The notes below the pieces were generated by a model. It was not told where the DNA came from and searched no databases. It saw only the letters and a program-made list of their open reading frames with translations. A stretch of 31,558 nt of DNA from a virus. The stretch is from positions 1 to 31,558 of IMG/VR virus record IMGVR_UViG_3300045988_122024, one strand, 5' to 3'. Positions 14,724 to 31,558 of the stretch are shown one piece after another (position 1 is the first letter of the stretch; the number at the start of each line of letters is the position of its first letter). The position numbers and the translations under genes are program-made.

Positions 14724-15128
14724 ATGCAAAAAAACGCGTATGTTATACCGATTAAAGCCGTTTACGAAACCGAGGTGAAAGACACGGAAAGTCCGTCCAC
14801 CACTCAAACTCCGAAAGAGAAAGAAAAAGAGGATAAGAGCGTGGGCAGAGTGATTGCCGTACAGTTTGCAAAAAAGGCGGCCACTTGGGCGGTTTCAGGC
14901 TATGGCGATTTGACAGGCGATTACTTGCGGCAGACGACCATAAACGAAGCGATTTCGGCGGCAACGCTCGTTGGGCAGGCGTTTTCTTCTCCGTTGGGCG
15001 CGGCAATGACTGTTGCGGCTTTGGGCATTACGGCGGCGAATAAAGCTGTCGAGTTAAGGAAGAACGAACAAGAGGTTGCGTTTTTGCGTGAAAGACTGGG
15101 CGACATTTCACAGAGGGGCGGTAGATGA
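14724..15128 (+). CDS. Structural hypothetical protein with Ala/Gly-rich hydrophobic segment (134 aa)
   Basis: RBS gaggtga. AISAATLVGQAFSSPLGAAMTVAALGITAANKAV resembles the hydrophobic segments of tape-measure or ejection proteins. Confidence 0.6.
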   Translation: MQKNAYVIPIKAVYETEVKDTESPSTTQTPKEKEKEDKSVGRVIAVQFAKKAATWAVSGYGDLTGDYLRQTTINEAISAATLVGQAFSSPLGAAMTVAALGITAANKAVELRKNEQEVAFLRERLGDISQRGGR

Positions 15129-17596
15129 TAAAGGTTTTAATAAACAACGTAGAACAACAGGCGGAGCAGGGCTTCACCGTTACACAGGCGGCCGACGGCA
15201 TAACTTTGGCCACGGCGACCGTTGTCGTTTACTCAAACAGCGGAGCGGCGATAAAGCCGTTTACAAAAGTAAGAATAGCGTTTATTCAACTCGGGGTGAA
15301 CTACCTCGATTTTTGCGTTGGAGCGGATAACGTAACACCAGCGGATAAACAAGGATTATGGAAACATACGCTTGTTTTAGTGGAGCAGACAAAGATTTTG
15401 GAAAAGTTTGTTTTACAAGCCGCAATTCTGACGAACACGAAAGACACAATGCAACAGCAAGTCAACAAGCTATTGCAGAACGTCGAAATGGCTGTTTTCG
15501 GCGAAACAAAAGCCGTCGAGTTTTCCGTCGCCACGGCCACAGCGGAAGTTTTGGCAAAGTACGAAGCGGAAGAAGTCAAAATGTCGGGAACGCTCCGAGA
15601 GGTTTTGGACGCTATTTTTTCTGCATTCGATAGCAGGGCAAAGGCAACAATCACAGAGTGGGGCGACACGCTTAAAATCGAAATCGGCCATTTTTCTTTG
15701 ACGGAATATTCCGATATCGAAACAATCGAACCGATAACGATTGCACGGAGCAATAACGTTGACGACTTTTGCGGAAGTATTTATTCCGACGTGAAAAACG
15801 CAGTCGGAGCGCGAGAGGTTACAGAAGTCAACACCTTAAAGGCAAGGACGGCCTCGGCCTCGACAAACGACGCAGAGTTTCTTTTTGCGTTCCCTGTTGA
15901 GTACATAACAAAGGCCGCCTTTACCTTGTCAAAAAACGTTGCGTTCGGAAAGTATATTGCGCAATCTTGGGTTCCGTCGCTCGTTATAGAAAATATGTCG
16001 GACTTCCAAATCGACTTCACGGAATGGTTCGTTGACAGCGAATACTATCAAACTTTAACCGAAACGGAAAAGAACAACTATATGGCGTACACAAGGGGAC
16101 AAACGGAGCAGTCCGTTGTTTCAACCTATAAGTTTTTCCTTTTCACTATGACGAACTACGAAAACGTTTTGAAACAGGCGTTGAAAGCGTGGGCGAAAGT
16201 GAAATATCCGACGACCGACATTGACAGCCTTGACGTTCGGTATTCGAACACGACTGCACTTTGGAGCGAGAGCTATTCCGACCTATACGGCATACTCTGG
16301 ACGATTACTTACGTTCCGACGATTGACACGACCGTCGAGCTTTTGAAACCCGAAGCAACGGCGGCAGAAAAACGCTTGCAAATCATTTCGAACCAACAAA
16401 CCGCAACGCCTGACCTTTACAGATACGGAAACAATCTCTCGGGTAAACTTTTAAGGACGGGAAACACGGAGCTTGTTTATGACGACACTGTTCCGAACTT
16501 TGCAGGGATGTGGCCGCTTTTGGGAAGAATAAACGGCTTTATCGTTTGGAAGCGTGAGTTTTCAGCGTTCGACGATTATATAGACGTTCGCTATTACCTG
16601 ACCGAAAACTACAACAACATCAATCAAAAAATCGGAATAAACAGGGAAATAAGACTTTTCACGATTCCACAGACTGGGCTTGAAACGATTTTGACAATGC
16701 GAGCAACGGTTGGAATCGGCACGGCTCTGGAATGGGAAGCGAAGAAAAAGGCCTCGCCTATCGTTAGTCATTATGCGTTGACGAAACTTATAAGAGGGTT
16801 GTTCGGGGAAGATGTTTCGGACGCGAAAGTCGGCTATGCTTCGATTGACACTTACGGCACAGACCTTGCAAAAAACTTTTTACTCCCGACGGCGAACTAC
16901 GGAGCAGGACAAACGAGCGTGTTTCAGTCGAAATTCTACGACAATTACACGGCAGGGTTTTCGGTCACGGAGAATAAAAAAATCTTTGACTGGATAGGCG
17001 GCAAAAAGGTTGCTTATTGTCCATACGTTGACGACAACGGCGAGTTTACAAGAATCGGAATTCGGCTCGGCACGGCGATTGACTTTTCAACAATGACGGT
17101 TGAGGGGAAAACCGAAGTTATTAAAAAGCTCCCTGCGGCCTCTTCTGCGACTGGATTTGTCAAAAACATTACAACGAGGCGTGCGCTTTACTACAACAAA
17201 GACAGGGAACAGGCCATAACGGCAAAGTATTGTTTAGACTTTGAAAGCACGAATAACGCTCATATCATAGGCACAGGCTTTGCGGCAAACAACGCTCTTG
17301 TCGGAACAGAACCGGCGAGGCTCACGGCGTGGATTTCCAAAACGAAATATTCCCGAATGGATATAACGAGGGTAAAAGGCACAAACTATTTCAATGCGAC
17401 AGAACTGGCGGTTTCGGATATTTTCGAATACGAATTTAACGAAACGGCAAAGAGGGTTGTTTTGAAAGTCAAAGTCAACGACCTGACAAACTCCATAATT
17501 GCGGCAGGATATATGGCTTTCGCAATCGGCGACGGAGAGGAAAACTTATTCGTCGCAATCAATAACCGTTCCGAAAATATGTATGTTTGGGGTTGA
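15125..17596 (+). CDS. Large tail/baseplate structural protein (823 aa)
   Basis: ATGA overlap. Largest ORF, upstream of the fibre genes. No recognisable enzymatic motif. Confidence 0.7.
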   Translation: MIKVLINNVEQQAEQGFTVTQAADGITLATATVVVYSNSGAAIKPFTKVRIAFIQLGVNYLDFCVGADNVTPADKQGLWKHTLVLVEQTKILEKFVLQAAILTNTKDTMQQQVNKLLQNVEMAVFGETKAVEFSVATATAEVLAKYEAEEVKMSGTLREVLDAIFSAFDSRAKATITEWGDTLKIEIGHFSLTEYSDIETIEPITIARSNNVDDFCGSIYSDVKNAVGAREVTEVNTLKARTASASTNDAEFLFAFPVEYITKAAFTLSKNVAFGKYIAQSWVPSLVIENMSDFQIDFTEWFVDSEYYQTLTETEKNNYMAYTRGQTEQSVVSTYKFFLFTMTNYENVLKQALKAWAKVKYPTTDIDSLDVRYSNTTALWSESYSDLYGILWTITYVPTIDTTVELLKPEATAAEKRLQIISNQQTATPDLYRYGNNLSGKLLRTGNTELVYDDTVPNFAGMWPLLGRINGFIVWKREFSAFDDYIDVRYYLTENYNNINQKIGINREIRLFTIPQTGLETILTMRATVGIGTALEWEAKKKASPIVSHYALTKLIRGLFGEDVSDAKVGYASIDTYGTDLAKNFLLPTANYGAGQTSVFQSKFYDNYTAGFSVTENKKIFDWIGGKKVAYCPYVDDNGEFTRIGIRLGTAIDFSTMTVEGKTEVIKKLPAASSATGFVKNITTRRALYYNKDREQAITAKYCLDFESTNNAHIIGTGFAANNALVGTEPARLTAWISKTKYSRMDITRVKGTNYFNATELAVSDIFEYEFNETAKRVVLKVKVNDLTNSIIAAGYMAFAIGDGEENLFVAINNRSENMYVWG

Positions 17597-17621
17597 CAAA
17601 CGGTTTTTCGGGTGTTACAAT
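17593..17621 (+). promoter_or_regulatory. Candidate internal promoter TTGACA-17-TACAAT upstream of the fibre/DGR cluster
   Basis: -35 at 17593-17598 overlaps the stop of the 823-aa gene. -10 at 17616-17621. The 14-mer gggttgacaaacgg is shared with 6645..6658. Confidence 0.55.
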
Positions 17622-17638
17622 AAAAACGAGGTAAACTT

Positions 17639-19078
17639 ATGAAAATTTATATCTATAAAAGCAACGGCAATATTTACAAGGTAGAAGATAACCGCTTTGT
17701 CCAAAACGGAAGCGGCGAACTTGCCGTCAATCAAATCAAATTCAGTTTTGTGGACGACACAGGAGCCGTCATTGCGTGGCCAGAGGTAAAGTGGGTGAAG
17801 CTCGCCTGCAAAAGGCAGGACGGCCTTACTATCCGACCGCTCAACATCGGTTACAACTCCACCGAGAAAGCGTGGATTTACACAATCACCGATACGAGCG
17901 GCATTTTGGGATTGCAGGGTTCTTTGGAAATCTCGGCTTTATTCGTTGCGGCTGACTTGGTCACTTCTGACACGGGGACGGTTTGGAAGAACGAAAGAGT
18001 GCTTGCTTCGGTTGCGGTTTTGGGAAAGGTTCTGCGAAACGTAAACTATGACGGCGAAACGTGGTCGGATGATATACAAAGGCTCGAAGAGGGAATAGAC
18101 GGCCTACAAGGTCAAATCGTACAAACGAACGCCGAACTCGACAAGGCAAACAAAAAGATAGCTGACAACACCGTCGGCCTTTCACAGGCGCAAACCGACA
18201 TTGACGCTTTAGAAAACCGAACCGACACGCTCGAACAAGACGTTGCGGACTTGAAACGCGATATAACAGGCGTTTATCAATTCAAAGGCTCTGTTGACAC
18301 TTACGCAGACCTTTTGACGAAATCGGACACGGCAGAAATCGGCGACGTTTGGGAAGTTATCCATCCCGACGGAATCAACTATGCGTGGGTTGGAAAAAGC
18401 TTAACACATCCAGACGGTTGGGACAGTTTAGGTCAGGTTTTCAAACTTTCCCCTGCGACTTACTCTTCTCTCGGCGGCGTTATTCCAGACGGCAACACTA
18501 TGGAAGTCAACGAAAAGGGCGTTATCAAACCGAGGGCGGCGACAAACTATAAGGCAGGCATAATTCTTCCCGACGGCGTTTCGACGAAGATAAAAGACGG
18601 AAAGCTCGTGGCCGTTCCGAGCGGTGCGGCGGTGGCTTATACCGACGAACAAATCGACCTTATCTTAAAATCTATCGACTACAACTTTGACGGAACGCTT
18701 CCGAACATCAATCAGCTTGTCGAGCCTGTTTATTTACCTCTGACGACCGACGCGGCAAATCCGCAAACGAAAGAGCTTAACTATGCGATAGGCATAAAAG
18801 ACACAAAGAGCTATCTTGTGAAATGGCTCTACAACGGAGCGGAACAAGAATTGACCGCGATTGCGGCCTTTACTCCGACGGCAGAGGGGGTAGCAATTCC
18901 GACGCTTGTCGTGGAAACTGGAAGCGTGGGCGAATCGTTCGTTATCTATGACGGAGCGGTTGGAGCTTATGTTGACGGCGTGTTTACGTTCACGGCCGTT
19001 GGAGATATGGCTATAATTATCAACGAGGGCAAGGCGTTTGACCTTGTCGAAATCAAAGAAGTGGAGGCGACTGAATAA
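17639..19078 (+). CDS. Tail fibre protein with central coiled coil
   Basis: 479 aa. Coiled-coil stretch (LEEGIDGLQGQIVQTNAELDKANKKIADNTVGLSQAQTDIDALENRTDTLEQDVADLKRD), then YQFKGSVDTYADL...GDVWEV...YAWVG, a pattern common in Gram-positive phage fibres. Confidence 0.7.
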   Translation: MKIYIYKSNGNIYKVEDNRFVQNGSGELAVNQIKFSFVDDTGAVIAWPEVKWVKLACKRQDGLTIRPLNIGYNSTEKAWIYTITDTSGILGLQGSLEISALFVAADLVTSDTGTVWKNERVLASVAVLGKVLRNVNYDGETWSDDIQRLEEGIDGLQGQIVQTNAELDKANKKIADNTVGLSQAQTDIDALENRTDTLEQDVADLKRDITGVYQFKGSVDTYADLLTKSDTAEIGDVWEVIHPDGINYAWVGKSLTHPDGWDSLGQVFKLSPATYSSLGGVIPDGNTMEVNEKGVIKPRAATNYKAGIILPDGVSTKIKDGKLVAVPSGAAVAYTDEQIDLILKSIDYNFDGTLPNINQLVEPVYLPLTTDAANPQTKELNYAIGIKDTKSYLVKWLYNGAEQELTAIAAFTPTAEGVAIPTLVVETGSVGESFVIYDGAVGAYVDGVFTFTAVGDMAIIINEGKAFDLVEIKEVEATE

Positions 19079-20325
19079 TGGCTACTTGGGAACAAGTCGA
19101 CAAAAGGATAAGAAAGATAAAAACGGCGATTGGCGAGGGCGGCGGAGCGACTTTTTTAACGGCCGCAAACGAAGTGTTTAAGGGGATTGTTCCACCGAAA
19201 CCAGGAGGCAAGTATGTTTTCAGCTACACGATTGACAGCACGAAGTCAAGTCCGACGGAAGCGGTAACCTATACAGGCGATTGTGCAGGCTTTACTCCTG
19301 CGACAATGGGCGACAGTTTCAACTGGGGTTCGTGGGCAGACAAGTGGCCGTTCAACGAGATTAAGCCTTGTTTGGTAAAAAACAGAGCGGTTGTCGGTTA
19401 TCTCAATCCGAACAACTATTTAGAGTTTGAGGACGGCACTCCTGCGGACATCGTAAGCGGCGACGCTGGCGATTGTATGGTAGAGTTTCCGAAAATGTAT
19501 TTAGGAATGTCCACCGACGCGCAAGGCTTAACCACTGTTACGATTACAAACGACGCAACGGTTGAGGGCGTTTACGACGACGCTTTTGTCTATAAAGGCA
19601 AGTCTTATTCGAAGTTCTATGTCGGAGCGTTCAAAGGTTATGTTCTCAACGGCAAATTGCGGTCTTTAAGCGGAAAATCACCGTCGGTTTCAAACACAAT
19701 CGGAACGTTCAGAACCTATGCGCAGGCGAACGGCGAGGGCTACGAACAAACTCAGTGGTATCAGCTTATGTTGAGGCAAGCCCTTTACATATTGCTGTTC
19801 AAGAACCTCAACTCGCAATCGGCTTTGGGTGCAGGCGTTACGAACAGCAGCTCAAAGAAGAACACAGGCGGAGCGAACTCAAACGGCGTAAACTACGGCT
19901 CGACCTCTGCTTCTGTTCAGGTCAAGTGTTTGGGCATAGAAGACTTTTGGGGTAACATTTACGAATGGGTTGACGGCATAGCCACAAAGAACTACACGGC
20001 ATACACGGCGAACGGAAACTATAACGACAACTGCGACGGTTACACGGCCGCAAAAACGATTGAGAGCTCATTATCGGGCTATATGTCGAAAGCACAAGGC
20101 TCTCGCAGACTGGGCTTTGCTCCGCTTCAAACATCAGGTTCACAGAGCACATATTATTGCGACTATGCTTACCTTAACGTAGGTAGCTCGGTCTATGTCG
20201 CTGATTTCGGGGGCTATTGGAGTAGTGGCGCGAGGGCTGGCGCGTTTCGTTTGAGTGTGGATTATTCGGCCTCGTCTTCGGGTGGTACTATCGGGGCGCG
20301 TTTATCTTGCGTTTCTCAATCTTAA
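19078..20325 (+). CDS. DGR target protein: tail fibre/receptor-binding protein with C-type-lectin (FGE-sulfatase-like) C-terminal domain
   Basis: 415 aa. Contains GIEDFWGNIYEWVDG (cf. the GNVWEW hallmark). C-terminus GGYWSSGARAGAFRLSVDYSASSSGGTIGARLSCV matches the CLec-type VR scaffold. The VR lies in the last ~42 codons. Confidence 0.85.
   Translation: MATWEQVDKRIRKIKTAIGEGGGATFLTAANEVFKGIVPPKPGGKYVFSYTIDSTKSSPTEAVTYTGDCAGFTPATMGDSFNWGSWADKWPFNEIKPCLVKNRAVVGYLNPNNYLEFEDGTPADIVSGDAGDCMVEFPKMYLGMSTDAQGLTTVTITNDATVEGVYDDAFVYKGKSYSKFYVGAFKGYVLNGKLRSLSGKSPSVSNTIGTFRTYAQANGEGYEQTQWYQLMLRQALYILLFKNLNSQSALGAGVTNSSSKKNTGGANSNGVNYGSTSASVQVKCLGIEDFWGNIYEWVDGIATKNYTAYTANGNYNDNCDGYTAAKTIESSLSGYMSKAQGSRRLGFAPLQTSGSQSTYYCDYAYLNVGSSVYVADFGGYWSSGARAGAFRLSVDYSASSSGGTIGARLSCVSQS
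20192..20315 (+). repeat. DGR variable repeat (VR)
   Basis: Aligns to 20393..20515 at a constant offset of 201 nt. Differences are almost exclusively where TR has A. The 5' limit is uncertain (20192-20198). Confidence 0.88.
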
Positions 20326-20392
20326 CTATTAAAACTATTAAGAATTATATAAATCTGCAGAAATATAATTAGGGTTGTCGTTCCGTTTTTAT

Positions 20393-20515
20393 AAAAAGTC
20401 GCTTATTTCGGAGACAATTGGAATAATGACACGAATGCTGACACGTTTCAATTGAATGTGAATAATTCGACCTCGAATTCGAATAATAATATCGGGACAC
20501 GTTTAACTTTGTTTC
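20393..20515 (+). repeat. DGR template repeat (TR), non-coding
   Basis: Intergenic. Read in the VR frame it gives VAYFGDNWNNDTNADTFQLNVNNSTSNSNNNIGTRL, rich in AAY codons. The 5' limit is uncertain (20393-20399). Confidence 0.88.
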
Positions 20516-20618
20516 AAAAGTACAAGATTTGGAACGGCAGTCCTTGCCTCTTGGCAAAACATAAAAATTCCTAACGCCGTGTTAGTAAGTGATTGAAAGT
20601 GCGGCAGGAGAAACAAAG

Positions 20619-21647
20619 ATGAAAAGATACGGAAATTTGTGGACAAAAGTCGTTGACATCGACAATATACTTTTAGCGATAAACAACGCTCAACGGGGCA
20701 AAATTGCGAAGTATAAAAGGGTGAAGAACTGGCGAAAGGTTCGGGAAATCGAAAGGGTTTTAGCGAACAAAGAGTTTTACGCCTTAAAGATACAACGGCT
20801 GTTGAAAACGAAGAAGTATCGGACATCACGCTATTTTGAGTTTACAATCAACGATAACGGAAAAGAGCGGACAATATGCGACTTGCCGTTTTATCCAGAC
20901 AGGATAGTCCACTGGGCGTTGATACAAGTTTTAGAGCCGTGTTTTATGAAGCAGTTTATCAGTCAGACCTATGCGGCTTTACCTGACAGGGGAACGCATA
21001 AGGCGTTGAAAAAGCTCCGTGAGTATCTGTCCGAAAAACCGAAGTATTGTGCGAAGTTAGACGTAAGAAAGTTTTTTCCGAGCATAGACAAAGAGGTTCT
21101 GAAAAGGCTATTGCGGAAGAAGTTTAAGGACGAGGGCGTGCTATGGCTTTTGGACGAGGTTATCGACAGCTATCCGAAAGGGCTTCCGATTGGGAACTAT
21201 ACAAGTCAGTTTTTGGGGAACTTCTACCTCAACGAATTTGACCACTGGATAAAGGAAGAAAAGGGCGTGCAGTTTTACTTGCGATATATGGACGACATCA
21301 TTATTCTGTCGGACGATAAAGGGGAGCTACACGGCCTTATAGAGGAAATCGACGGTTATCTCAAAACAAACTTAAAACTCGAAATAAAGGCGAATGTGCA
21401 GGTTTTTCCGATAGCGGCGAGGGGTGTTGACTTCGTGGGATATAGAAGCTTTGAAAAGTTTACTCTTCTTCGTCGCAGAACAAAAGAAAAGTTAAAAAAG
21501 GTAACAAAAAGGGCATTGAGAGGAAAGGTCAAAAACCTTGAAAACGTGCTCGGCTCATATAACGGCATTTTGAAATGGGGCGATTGTTTCAGATTAAGAG
21601 CCGCAACTATTGAAAAAATTAAAGGAGGCTTAAATGGCTTACGATGA
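20619..21647 (+). CDS. DGR-type reverse transcriptase
   Basis: RBS gcaggaga, ATG at 20619 (the ORF track starts at GTG 20589). Motifs LPIGNYTSQFLGNFYLNEFD (the DGR-specific IGxxxSQ) and YLRYMDDIIILS (YMDD). Confidence 0.9.
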   Translation: MKRYGNLWTKVVDIDNILLAINNAQRGKIAKYKRVKNWRKVREIERVLANKEFYALKIQRLLKTKKYRTSRYFEFTINDNGKERTICDLPFYPDRIVHWALIQVLEPCFMKQFISQTYAALPDRGTHKALKKLREYLSEKPKYCAKLDVRKFFPSIDKEVLKRLLRKKFKDEGVLWLLDEVIDSYPKGLPIGNYTSQFLGNFYLNEFDHWIKEEKGVQFYLRYMDDIIILSDDKGELHGLIEEIDGYLKTNLKLEIKANVQVFPIAARGVDFVGYRSFEKFTLLRRRTKEKLKKVTKRALRGKVKNLENVLGSYNGILKWGDCFRLRAATIEKIKGGLNGLR

Positions 21648-23736
21648 TTTCAAAGAGGGTTGTTCGGTCATAAAGGACTACGCTGACAACCTAAACAAGG
21701 AAACAACTGGGAAAATCCCTACAAAGGTTTCCGAACTAACAAACGATAAAAACTATGCGACGGAGAGCTATGTCAATACGGCGATTGAGAATATTGCACA
21801 GCCTTCCTCTCTCCCTCAAACCTACAAGAAAAAGGCGGTAACACTGGCGACGAGTGGGTGGGGTAATATGACTACTATTGACTGGAATAACGGAAAAGAA
21901 AGGACAGAAACGAGCGGCACTGAAAGCACGTGGAAAATTCCGTTTTCTTTTTCTCCTCAAGATGTTGTTAAATTAAAATTAACCAACGGCGATTATGCAT
22001 CGTATACATTGACAGGCAGTGGGGGTGGCGTAATTTCCGGATTTATAAAAGCCGAAAATGCAAGCGGCACTGAAAGCACGTGGAATACTTTTACAATAAA
22101 CTGGAACGTAAATCCAGGATATGCTTCCGCTTGGCTTGAAATTAAAGGCCTCGCTATTCCTGTTGTTAAAATTTTTACCGAAATAATAATACAACGGGTA
22201 GACGCCACTATTTATCAATACACCGACGCCGACGTCAAAGTCAACAGCGAGGTTCGTTTCACTTTGGACGAGGCAAACGGCAAACTTGCAGGACAGTTCG
22301 GCCTTAAAAAGACTATCGACAAAGAGGCGGGCAAACTCACGTTTACGGCTGATACGCTTCCTACAAGCGCAATCACCGCCACTTTGGAAATCGGGGAAAC
22401 TTCGACAGAGGGCGCGGCGTTCGTTGAGGGGATAACCTCGGATATCACAGGCTTTGTTAAGGCTACGGAAGAGAACACTTTTACTAAAACGCAGACCTTT
22501 AACGGAACTGAAAGTCAGGCAGGGATAAAAACTAACGCAATAGATAACGAAAACGGAAACAGGGTTGTCTATTTCAACGGTGAAAAACAGATGTTCGGTT
22601 CGGGTGCTATTCCTGCACAAGTCAGGTCGAGCGCACAAAGGCTATATTTTGAAAGGCCTGTCAGCGGCGGAACGGGAACGGAAATCGTCGAGATTGCGAA
22701 CTTGTCAGATGTTGGAACTGGTGGCGGAGTAAAAGGGAAACGGTTTATTTTTACAGAAAATAACATCGTCAAACTTGGAAACGATGTGAACTTTTCAATG
22801 ACTACGTCGCAAAACTATGCCGTAGGTTCTACAAGTTCTCGCACGGCAGTTGCGGCAGACAACAGAGGAATGTTGCAGTTTGAAGTCGGCAAATCCTATA
22901 AACTTCAATACGGAGCCTCAGTGGAAGCACCAACGGCAGTTTATGCAGTGGCTTCTTCTATGACCTTGTCGGACGGCACAACCGTTGCAAAAGCAGAATT
23001 TGCCGTAAACGGAAAAACACTTGTTGTTGTTGATAGAGCAACGGCAACGGCGAATATAACTTCCGAAGCTTCGTTGACATATAGCCTGAACGGAGCAGTT
23101 GCGTATTTTTCCGATTTTTCAACCGTCGCAGAATACCTGCCGATTCATGTGTTTACGATTCCGAAAGAATATTATGTGCGAATTCCGTTTGACGAAACGA
23201 TTTTAAGCACGGATATTGTTGCCATTTTCACGGACAAAATTGCTCCAACAAGTGTTAAACATACGACCTCTTATATAGAACTGAACTATGGCGTTTCTTC
23301 TTCAGTTTACTATTTAAGCGATTCGGCAGGCGACCTCATACACGACAATGCAAAATTCTTAATAGGAACAGATTATTATCTGGCTGTCGTGGGAAGTTCA
23401 ACAACAGGAGGGGCTTATGTTGTTTCTGCCAAACAAGAAAACATATCCGAACACAGCACGACAGTTTTGGTTAGTGAGTGGGTGCCTGAAACGGACGGAA
23501 CATTCAAATGGACTGACAGCGGTTCGGCAAGCAGCAGCCTTATCGAATATGGGGTTGTTTGGAACAGCGAAGTCAAATTGTCGTTTGCTACGGAAACAGA
23601 CAAAGAAACGTTCGAAGCGGCAGGGTGTAAAATCGTAAGCGGAAAAACCTTTGCAACGCCATTATCAATAACGTGCACGACCAAACCGACAAAACCTATC
23701 TTTTTCACCTATACGGTCAGAAACAACGCAAGATAA
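21634..23736 (+). CDS. Tail fibre protein (700 aa)
   Basis: RBS aaaggaggc. N-terminal KVSELTNDKNYATESYVNTAIENI is a widespread phage-fibre N-terminal motif. Overlaps the RT stop by 14 nt. Confidence 0.7.
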   Translation: MAYDDFKEGCSVIKDYADNLNKETTGKIPTKVSELTNDKNYATESYVNTAIENIAQPSSLPQTYKKKAVTLATSGWGNMTTIDWNNGKERTETSGTESTWKIPFSFSPQDVVKLKLTNGDYASYTLTGSGGGVISGFIKAENASGTESTWNTFTINWNVNPGYASAWLEIKGLAIPVVKIFTEIIIQRVDATIYQYTDADVKVNSEVRFTLDEANGKLAGQFGLKKTIDKEAGKLTFTADTLPTSAITATLEIGETSTEGAAFVEGITSDITGFVKATEENTFTKTQTFNGTESQAGIKTNAIDNENGNRVVYFNGEKQMFGSGAIPAQVRSSAQRLYFERPVSGGTGTEIVEIANLSDVGTGGGVKGKRFIFTENNIVKLGNDVNFSMTTSQNYAVGSTSSRTAVAADNRGMLQFEVGKSYKLQYGASVEAPTAVYAVASSMTLSDGTTVAKAEFAVNGKTLVVVDRATATANITSEASLTYSLNGAVAYFSDFSTVAEYLPIHVFTIPKEYYVRIPFDETILSTDIVAIFTDKIAPTSVKHTTSYIELNYGVSSSVYYLSDSAGDLIHDNAKFLIGTDYYLAVVGSSTTGGAYVVSAKQENISEHSTTVLVSEWVPETDGTFKWTDSGSASSSLIEYGVVWNSEVKLSFATETDKETFEAAGCKIVSGKTFATPLSITCTTKPTKPIFFTYTVRNNAR
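21913..21935. repeat. 23-nt perfect direct repeat, copy 1 (agcggcactgaaagcacgtggaa)
   Basis: Identical to 22063..22085, 150 nt apart. Encodes SGTESTW in both copies. Confidence 0.9.
22063..22085. repeat. 23-nt perfect direct repeat, copy 2
   Basis: Identical to 21913..21935. Confidence 0.9.
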
Positions 23737-23746
23737 GGAGCGACTT

Positions 23747-23998
23747 ATGGAAAAAAACATTGTTTATAACATTATCAACCTAAATGAGCCTATTCCTAAC
23801 CACGTTATCGTGGTTGGGAAAGGGCAAAGATACGAGTGCGTTCCTCTCGAAATGGTTATATTCAGAGGGCAACGGTTCTGCGACTATATCGACGGACTTG
23901 AAAGGTCGATAAGGGCAGAATTTGAGAGCAAACTTCAAGAACTGGAAAACCGCATTGAAAAGTGCGAAAAAAGACAAGACGGAAACGAGGTGTTATGA
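23747..23998 (+). CDS. Hypothetical protein (83 aa)
   Basis: RBS taaggagc. C-terminal helical segment. Confidence 0.65.
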   Translation: MEKNIVYNIINLNEPIPNHVIVVGKGQRYECVPLEMVIFRGQRFCDYIDGLERSIRAEFESKLQELENRIEKCEKRQDGNEVL

Positions 23999-24747
23999 TG
24001 AAAAAAACTATCAAACTTATGGCGATTCTCTTTGCGCTCGTGCTTATGGTTGGACTTTTGGCAAGTCCAGTCGTATGTTATGCCGAAGAAGAGGTCGTCG
24101 AGCAAGAGCAACAGAATGACGAAAAAATCGACGCGGACAAAGTGGCGGACATCGTTATCGAAAAGCTCAACGAACAAGAAAAGACGAAAAACCTTGCCGA
24201 ATGGATTGAGAAGTACAAGGCGGAAATCCTGACCGTTGTCAGCGGTTTAATCGGTTTAGCCTCGGCGGCGATTGCTTCTGCTGTTAAGGCGAAAGTAACG
24301 CAAAATATCAACAATCAAGAGGGTGTTTTCAAACGAACCTCTGACGCGATTATAGCGAACGAAAAGGCTGTTGATAAGCTAAACGGCTATGCGGAGCAGT
24401 TTGACCGAATAGACGGCGAAATTGCTGCTTTGGTGGGGGCTGTCAACGAAAGGGACGAGGCACAGGCGAAACAGCAGGCCGAATTGAAAGCAATCCTCAT
24501 TGCGTGCGTGAATATGCTCCATACGGCCTACGCTCACTCGAACCTCACGGAAGAAACGAAGTCGGTCATTGAGGGGTTTTTCGGCGACGCTATCCACTAC
24601 AACCAAAAAATGGCGGATATGAAGATTTCGCTCGAAAGCCTTGTTGAGAAGTTCAACGAGCTGAAAACCAAAGTTGAGGACGCTAAAAAGCAATCCGAGG
24701 ACATCAAGGTCGAACAACCTAAAAAACCTACCGAGTGGGAGGGATAG
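23995..24747 (+). CDS. Secreted/membrane-anchored coiled-coil protein (250 aa)
   Basis: In-frame ATG 23995 forms an ATGA overlap with the upstream stop. N-terminus MMKKTIKLMAILFALVLMVGLLASPVVCYA looks like a signal peptide. A second hydrophobic helix is ILTVVSGLIGLASAAIASAV. Confidence 0.7.
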   Translation: MMKKTIKLMAILFALVLMVGLLASPVVCYAEEEVVEQEQQNDEKIDADKVADIVIEKLNEQEKTKNLAEWIEKYKAEILTVVSGLIGLASAAIASAVKAKVTQNINNQEGVFKRTSDAIIANEKAVDKLNGYAEQFDRIDGEIAALVGAVNERDEAQAKQQAELKAILIACVNMLHTAYAHSNLTEETKSVIEGFFGDAIHYNQKMADMKISLESLVEKFNELKTKVEDAKKQSEDIKVEQPKKPTEWEG

Positions 24748-31454: not shown

Positions 31455-31558
31455 GCGATATATTGTGGTTTGTTGTGTTTGCGATGTTTGCGGCCGTTTC
31501 GTGGTTTATCGGTTGGATAATAAACGATTTCAAAGGGGGCAAGCGTGGCAAAAAAAAT
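31451..31558 (+). CDS. 5' portion of the small transmembrane protein ORF that crosses the circular junction (completed at 76..96)
   Basis: ATGA overlap with the upstream stop, RBS ggagag. Runs off the window end inside the terminal repeat. Confidence 0.5.
   Translation, partial: MSDILWFVVFAMFAAVSWFIGWIINDFKGGKRGKKN
31484..31558. repeat. 75-nt terminal direct repeat, identical to 1..75
   Basis: Read directly. Confidence 0.95.

Follow-up and report, generated by a model that had tools for sequence, protein, structure and literature searches.

Does the pair of repeats that stands beside a reverse transcriptase (RT) gene in a viral genome belong to a retroelement which can still rewrite the tip of a tail fibre, or is it what such an element leaves behind? 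The DNA that raises this question is IMG/VR record IMGVR_UViG_3300045988_122024, positions 1 to 31,558, and the whole of this stretch (31,558 nt) is referred to below as the window. Adenine-specific transfer from a template repeat (TR) to a variable repeat (VR) defines the diversity-generating retroelements (DGRs), for which the Bordetella phage BPP-1 provides the paradigm. We read the locus as a functional, accessory-free DGR in a complete 31.5-kb gut phage genome and give this reading a probability of about 85%. The features on which it rests are the following.

19078..20325, plus strand: target gene, 415 aa, encoding a tail-fibre-like variable protein with a predicted C-type-lectin-type C-terminal domain
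20197..20308, plus strand: VR, codons 374-410 of the 415-aa target, with the diversified part reaching up to ~20290
20293..20325, plus strand: VR 3' end resembling an initiation of mutagenic homing (IMH) site, GGGGCGCGTTTATCTTGCGTTTC...TAA, with a GC-rich start and fixed differences from the TR, invariant
20398..20509, plus strand: TR, non-coding, with 37 adenines; 20494-20515 forms an IMH*-like end
20540..20625, plus strand: structured spacer RNA, Rfam RT-17 (RF03020), 42.8 bits against a gathering threshold of 40.4, ending at the RT start
20619..21647, plus strand: DGR-type RT, 342 aa from the ATG at 20619, with AGGAG 7 nt upstream

The repeat pair and its reverse transcriptase

Compared without gaps, VR 20197-20308 and TR 20398-20509 align over 112 nt at a constant offset of 201 nt. 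They differ at 28 positions, 26 of which carry an adenine in the TR (A to G 19, A to T 5, A to C 2), while the remaining changes are T20404 to G and T20436 to G, with no others. Given the 37 adenines of the TR, the hypergeometric probability of this concentration is 1.2e-14. The mismatches are distributed over codon positions 1, 2 and 3 as 12:12:4, and the TR, read in the VR frame, holds 11 AAT codons. Furthermore, an adenine-wildcard repeat scan that took in both strands of the entire window, for pairs within 8 kb, returned the 20197/20398 pair as its sole match. An earlier note on this DNA had described a gapless alignment at this offset, 26 mismatches at adenines in the core, the same two additional substitutions and a TR rich in AAY codons, and computation reproduces each of these statements. 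The extent which it gave to the repeat, 20192..20315 against 20393..20515, holds for the core and not for the edges, the solid repeat being 112 rather than 123 nt long: the 5' edge (20192-20196 against 20393-20397) is uninformative because it lies opposite TR adenines only, and the repeat ends at 20308/20509 since any match beyond needs an indel.

Comparison with relatives divides the 26 adenine mismatches into 16 variable adenines, 7 that are G in every VR (TR positions 20412, 20414, 20429, 20431, 20441, 20443 and 20470) and 3 fixed differences of the IMH/IMH* type (TR adenines 20497, 20499 and 20506). The earlier interpretation of the locus as a DGR is upheld, with 16 of the 26 adenine differences attributable to diversification and the other 10 fixed. 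At the 3' end, the VR reads GGGGCGCGTTTATCTT where the TR reads GGGACACGTTTAACTT, a fixed difference that is the same in five of six VRs. The closest comparison is provided by L019, a Logan contig of the same layout from a sister genome whose gene body is 91% identical (9% diverged), and across 20293-20325 the window and L019 are 100% identical. Among 68 unique homologous tails, codons 406-411 (GARLSC) are invariant and the AAT-templated codons take 10-16 different residues each. On these patterns, the VR 3' end appears to behave like an IMH, with the IMH* of the TR as its counterpart.

Directly 5' of the VR, the stretch 20151-20196 (codons 359-373) is hypervariable among relatives and often reads 'DNT...'. 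The window and L019 are 76% identical here, compared with 91% in the gene body, and the hypervariability in relatives reaches ~12 codons upstream of the window VR. No second TR for this stretch, or for other variable patches of the target, was found in the window. As no window TR covers 20151-20196, the TR of today seems to have been shortened at its 5' end compared with the one that shaped the family.

The RT, which the public record names a hypothetical protein, matches Pfam RVT_1 (5e-17) and PHROG 1423 (5e-107); an alternative start at GTG 20589 would lengthen it to 352 aa. Its best match in the PDB is the BPP-1 enzyme bRT (8ub7; E 1e-39, 140 bits, residues 2-326), whereas retron, group II and Drt RTs in the PDB reach 66 bits or less. 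The motif IGNYTSQ aligns with IGSLTSQ of bRT ([I/V/L]GxxxSQ) and YMDD is intact, so that the assignment to the DGR type, which the earlier note had based on these two motifs, agrees with the closest solved relative. The protein also falls far under the cut-offs of all models for group II, retron and Drt enzymes in NCBIfam, which has no DGR RT model and is able only to exclude other RT families.

The target and RT open reading frames (ORFs) are separated by 293 nt, and there is no room for an ORF between VR, TR and RT. This compact arrangement recurs among relatives: a TR/VR pair is present at 65 of 80 IMG/VR loci encoding RTs 42-53% identical to that of the window. In nearly all of these, the VR precedes the TR by 180-260 nt and the TR stops 100-250 nt short of the RT start, a spacing which leaves no room for avd. 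L023 and L024 share the layout and have Mtd_N-type targets. The RT-17 motif occupies the same position between TR and RT in L019, L006, L023 and L024, and it lies in the TR-RT spacer of 11 of 20 sampled clade members (from L034-L077). In BPP-1, the analogous RT-10 motif was located between TR and brt by Weinberg et al., who also speculated that further motifs of the RT series serve DGRs elsewhere (PMC5737381). By gene layout alone, the element corresponds to Architecture A1 (Wu et al. 2018, PMC5758913), which has the order target-TR-RT and no accessory gene. For a lineage without avd, the same study suggested that retrohoming proceeds in a variant form which does not depend on Avd (PMC5758913), and the window DGR would likewise be independent of Avd.

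A working element or a relic

The comparison with L019 carries the case for function. Its TR is identical to that of the window at 112 of 112 positions, while the flanking non-coding DNA is 94-97% and the RT 95% identical. All 24 mismatches between the L019 VR and TR fall on TR adenines. The two VRs differ from each other at 15 sites, 13 of them at TR adenines, which leaves 2 differences at 75 non-adenine positions against a background divergence of ~9%; the VR has thus been kept in concert with the TR in both lineages. The ratio of nonsynonymous to synonymous substitution (dN/dS) between the two RTs is 0.11. Because the TR is identical, the L019 VR deviates at adenines only and the RT shows this low dN/dS, the element is judged, from sequence comparison, to be functional, and the copy in the window genome would itself be active at present. 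A more distant pair, L001 and L002, is identical over 1236 nt except for 21 VR sites, all of them TR adenines, and one other base.

Several observations weigh against this reading. A GC-rich inverted repeat 3' of the VR was not found: the DNA of 20290-20400 folds at -5.4 kcal/mol (z 0.47), no cruciform or hairpin after the VR is better than in shuffled sequence, and the only palindrome seen there is AT-rich and 8 bp long. Such a repeat downstream of the IMH is present in BPP-1 and is not universal among DGRs. No Avd, HRDC, MSL or CH1 was recognised with Pfam in 38 ORFs from the complete genome, among which a divergent Avd is possible, and a scan for promoters and terminators gave nothing above chance and nothing convincing. 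Other copies of the window genome are only re-assemblies of the same sample, nor does any near-identical genome carry a different VR. Furthermore, most close relatives have lost the cassette that contains TR and RT, which makes it dispensable, and the seven TR adenines which are G in every VR would, if copied faithfully, place Asp or Thr at invariant Gly/Ala scaffold positions, so that a special explanation is needed. The missing Avd is consistent with the known accessory-free TR-RT architecture, 29% of catalogued DGRs having no accessory genes (PMC5758913).

The loss concerns one discrete unit.

20334..21617, no strand assigned: TR-RT cassette, a discrete 1.28-kb indel with imperfect direct repeats at 20324-20342 and 21605-21624

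L017/L033, L018, L020 and L021/L022 are collinear with the window and 88-93% identical to it, and they lack exactly 20334-21617, the stop codon of the target running directly into the ribosome-binding site of the next gene. Neither an RT nor a TR is present in the 21 kb of L033, and L003 is a cassette-less relative of L001. The VRs of these cassette-less relatives, compared with the window TR, nevertheless have 22 of 24, 24 of 30, 20 of 27 and 24 of 30 mismatches at adenines. An unrelated phage, L025 (52.7-kb contig, P22-type portal by a weak Pfam match), shares the target module with the window at 82-85% identity, and its cassette is half-deleted: its segment 11251-11802 lacks window 20359-21111, so that the TR, RT-17 and the RT's N-terminal half are missing, and what is left of the RT, 114 aa, begins within the YMDD motif, at its MDD. 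Against the window TR, the L025 VR shows 25 mismatches at adenines and none elsewhere.

The simplest reading is that the cassette was lost after diversification. The cassette-less VRs may also have been diversified in trans, or the cassette may have been gained in the lineage of the window. Its GC content is 40.7%, compared with 49% in neighbouring genes, and the synonymous divergence (dS) between the window and L019 is 0.17 in the RT against 0.27-0.35 in flanking genes, which hints that the common ancestor of the cassette is younger than that of the surrounding genes.

Could the window itself then hold a fossil, a DGR that was active once and is no longer homing, so that the differences between TR and VR are historical? 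The repeated loss and decay of the cassette among relatives would fit this, as would an RT cluster of only 6 sequences (the next RT being 59% identical) beside target homologues at least 78% identical (P0001-P0052) which fall, at the 90% level, into more than 50 clusters. The two non-adenine changes in the window VR and a TR shorter than the region that is hypervariable in relatives point the same way. However, the RT is intact and its dN/dS low, the TR has remained identical between lineages whose flanking non-coding DNA has diverged by 3-6%, and the non-adenine positions of the VR are homogenised to the TR, with 0-2 of 75 differing. We therefore consider a fossil unlikely and retain the functional element as the preferred reading.

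Adenines that are always G in the VR

A wider comparison (loci L001-L007, L019, L024 and L034-L113) bears on the seven fixed adenines, which belong to a class, TR adenines followed by G or C, that is almost always G in the VR across the RT clade. These adenines are G in every VR known to use the window TR (21 of 21), compared with 36% G at other adenines, and the corresponding positions are Gly or Ala in nearly all of the 68 tails. The L001-type TR shows the same pattern, synonymous third positions included. Throughout the RT clade, the adenines of CAG, GAG and TAG appear as G in 89-98% of cases, whereas AAT adenines remain A in 49%. At four-fold degenerate third positions, an A before G became G in 60 of 60 cases and an A before C in 17 of 18, whereas an A before A or T was found as A 24, G 5, T 5 and C 2 times. 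When one VR per TR cluster is counted at the four-fold sites of 46 clusters, G occurs in 51 of 51 cases before G or C and in 3 of 12 before A or T. The pattern is absent from DGRs with RTs ~33% identical.

Since the pattern holds at synonymous sites, protein selection cannot explain it. One proposal, which we put forward tentatively and at rather less than even odds, is that the RTs of this clade read TR adenines before G or C almost deterministically as G and randomise those before A or T. TRs could then accumulate 'silent adenines' at Gly, Ala and Arg scaffold positions at no cost. The cause might be a context rule intrinsic to the RT, a need for GC tracts in the VR at the level of the DNA, or a bias in repair, each of which is possible. 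Measurements on bRT of BPP-1 do not show this near-deterministic behaviour: there the 3' base has been identified as the main context determinant, with a mean misincorporation of ~31% (PMC12875486). Two further candidates were rejected: TadA-type A-to-I editing, the contexts of which do not fit (few sites are UACG), and template dislocation, by which neighbour copying could not turn CAC into CGC.

The target, its phage and the wider family

The target is identical to DAV28063.1, named 'tail collar fiber protein' at NCBI, and matches PHROG 5302 'tail protein' (5e-61), while Pfam gave no match for it. Weak sequence matches connect it with TaqVP and with PvdO, which is similar to formylglycine-generating enzyme (FGE). 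An AlphaFold2 model reached a mean pLDDT of 74 and a pTM of 0.79, the VR loop itself being of low confidence. A Foldseek search of the PDB with this model returned TaqVP of Thermus aquaticus (5vf4) as the sole significant match (E 7.6e-8), followed by Mtd and TvpA, which match weakly (E 0.2-0.3). TaqVP is thereby the best match of the target among solved structures in both structure and sequence; it is only 14-16% identical, with a global TM score of ~0.4, and is bacterial rather than from a phage. The top BFVD matches of the model are phage tail collar fiber proteins (TMq up to 0.8), tail fibres of crAss-like phages included. The model thus supports a C-type-lectin-type fold of the C-terminus, closest to solved DGR variable proteins, in line with the C-type-lectin/FGE scaffold that the earlier note had proposed.

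Some relatives differ at the other end of the protein. P0122, P0123 and P0126 (541 aa), which belong to the 90% cluster of the target, have its 20-residue N-terminus replaced by a collagen-like Gly-X-Y extension of ~145 residues. From its sequence, this extension looks like an exchange of the N-terminal anchor typical of tail fibres.

How would the parts work together? The TR and the RT-17-type spacer RNA would be transcribed together with the RT gene or immediately upstream of it, and the RT would copy the TR RNA into cDNA while misreading adenines, with the spacer RNA probably priming cDNA synthesis, by analogy with BPP-1. The cDNA would take the place of the VR, from 20197 to ~20290, where the tail-fibre-like gene has its 3' end, and the GC-rich IMH-like end from 20293 onward would mark the VR as the recipient and never be rewritten. 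The truly mutable adenines would number 26, located in the 11 AAT codons and in TAT, CAA and ATC, and would recode at most 14 residues on a C-type-lectin-type ligand-binding domain, thereby altering the binding of the fibre. Diversification of the fibre tip would then affect host range, and it may, on the model of BPP-1, serve to switch host tropism.

An alternative accepts an active DGR and assigns the target to another role, that of a different virion protein or secreted adhesin which binds, for example, mucus or glycans instead of a host receptor. The absence of a Pfam match leaves room for such a role, the designation 'tail' derives from PHROG and NCBI names and from gene order, and most phage DGR targets are of unknown function according to Benler et al. 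(PMC6199706). Nevertheless, the gene belongs to the late structural block, where large virion-type genes flank it, its structural neighbours are annotated as tail fibres, its relatives have swapped their N-terminus for collagen-like repeats as tail fibres do, and the module has been exchanged between unrelated phage backbones. An adhesin of this kind is accordingly improbable, and we continue to regard the target as a probable receptor-binding fibre. Lastly, an ordinary diverged duplication, or a non-DGR RT (retron, group II intron or defence) beside a repeat, is effectively refuted: the sub-threshold NCBIfam matches of the RT to group II, Drt3a and retron models lie far under the cut-offs and bRT is clearly the best match, Rfam shows neither intron RNA nor an msr/msd family, and the mismatch spectrum is incompatible with ordinary divergence (p 1e-14).

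An exact direct repeat of 75 nt at the termini (1-75 and 31484-31558) shows the window to be a complete genome, assembled as a circle of 31,483 bp. Its other products include a terminase-like protein, a major head protein, a scaffold protein and a portal that a weak Pfam match assigns to the SPP1 type. Pfam recognised neither an integrase nor a recombinase in the genome, so that the phage is not evidently temperate; in a previous survey, DGRs were reportedly found in temperate phages only. Megablast of 15000-24000 against the INPHARED phages gave no match, an adenine-wildcard scan of JGI metagenome contigs for the VR/TR pattern gave 0 matches, and IMG/VR contains no close relative of the target, the best being 41% identical. 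Within GTDB genomes, relatives are at most 45% identical and occur in metagenome-assembled genomes of Christensenella and Clostridia.

No other gene comes near the 700-aa gene 3' of the RT (21634-23736) in divergence between close relatives. This 700-aa gene is 55% identical to its counterpart in L019 (alignment of the first 1.7 kb), compared with 91% in neighbouring genes, and its product ranges from 381 to 747 aa in relatives. The gene contains an exact 23-nt direct repeat (21913-21935 and 22063-22085) and may represent a second receptor-binding module that evolves by exchange.

With the DGR of BPP-1 (mtd-avd-TR-brt), the window element shares adenine-specific transfer into a C-terminal C-type-lectin-type domain of a tail-fibre protein, an RT whose closest solved homologue is bRT and which carries the [I/V/L]GxxxSQ motif, a GC-rich IMH-like VR 3' end with fixed differences from the TR, and a structured RNA between TR and RT. 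It differs in that avd is present in BPP-1 and none was recognised in the window, no GC-rich inverted repeat follows its VR, its codons are AAT instead of AAC, its spacer RNA is RT-17 instead of RT-10, identity between the RTs is low (the 140-bit match), and seven of its TR adenines are always G in the VR. Hankyphage (PMC6199706) and the crAss-like phage LMMB (PMC7290462) are likewise gut phages, from humans or animals, that diversify C-type-lectin-type tail proteins, whereas the backbone of the window has an SPP1-type portal (by the weak match above), a genome of 31.5 kb and no recognised integrase. The window DGR is ordinary for gut phages and belongs to a well-known kind of system, although two features of its relatives, the loss of the cassette and the always-G adenines, are less usual.

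As one more unannotated DGR beside the thousands known from gut phages, the element is of less use in itself than its comparative context. The orphan Rfam motif RT-17 is now assigned to the spacer between TR and RT in a large DGR clade that lacks Avd. Among the relatives, the TR-RT cassette passes from intact through half-deleted to cleanly excised, a natural series in which the neighbouring VRs are still hypervariable. Tail-fibre tips can thus stay hypervariable after the machinery that diversified them has gone, and a VR with an adenine pattern is therefore no proof of a resident DGR. If the 3'-neighbour rule is true, silent adenines would lower the identity between TR and VR and focus real diversification on the AAT codons, and the rule would matter wherever the library size of a DGR is estimated or a synthetic DGR template is designed.

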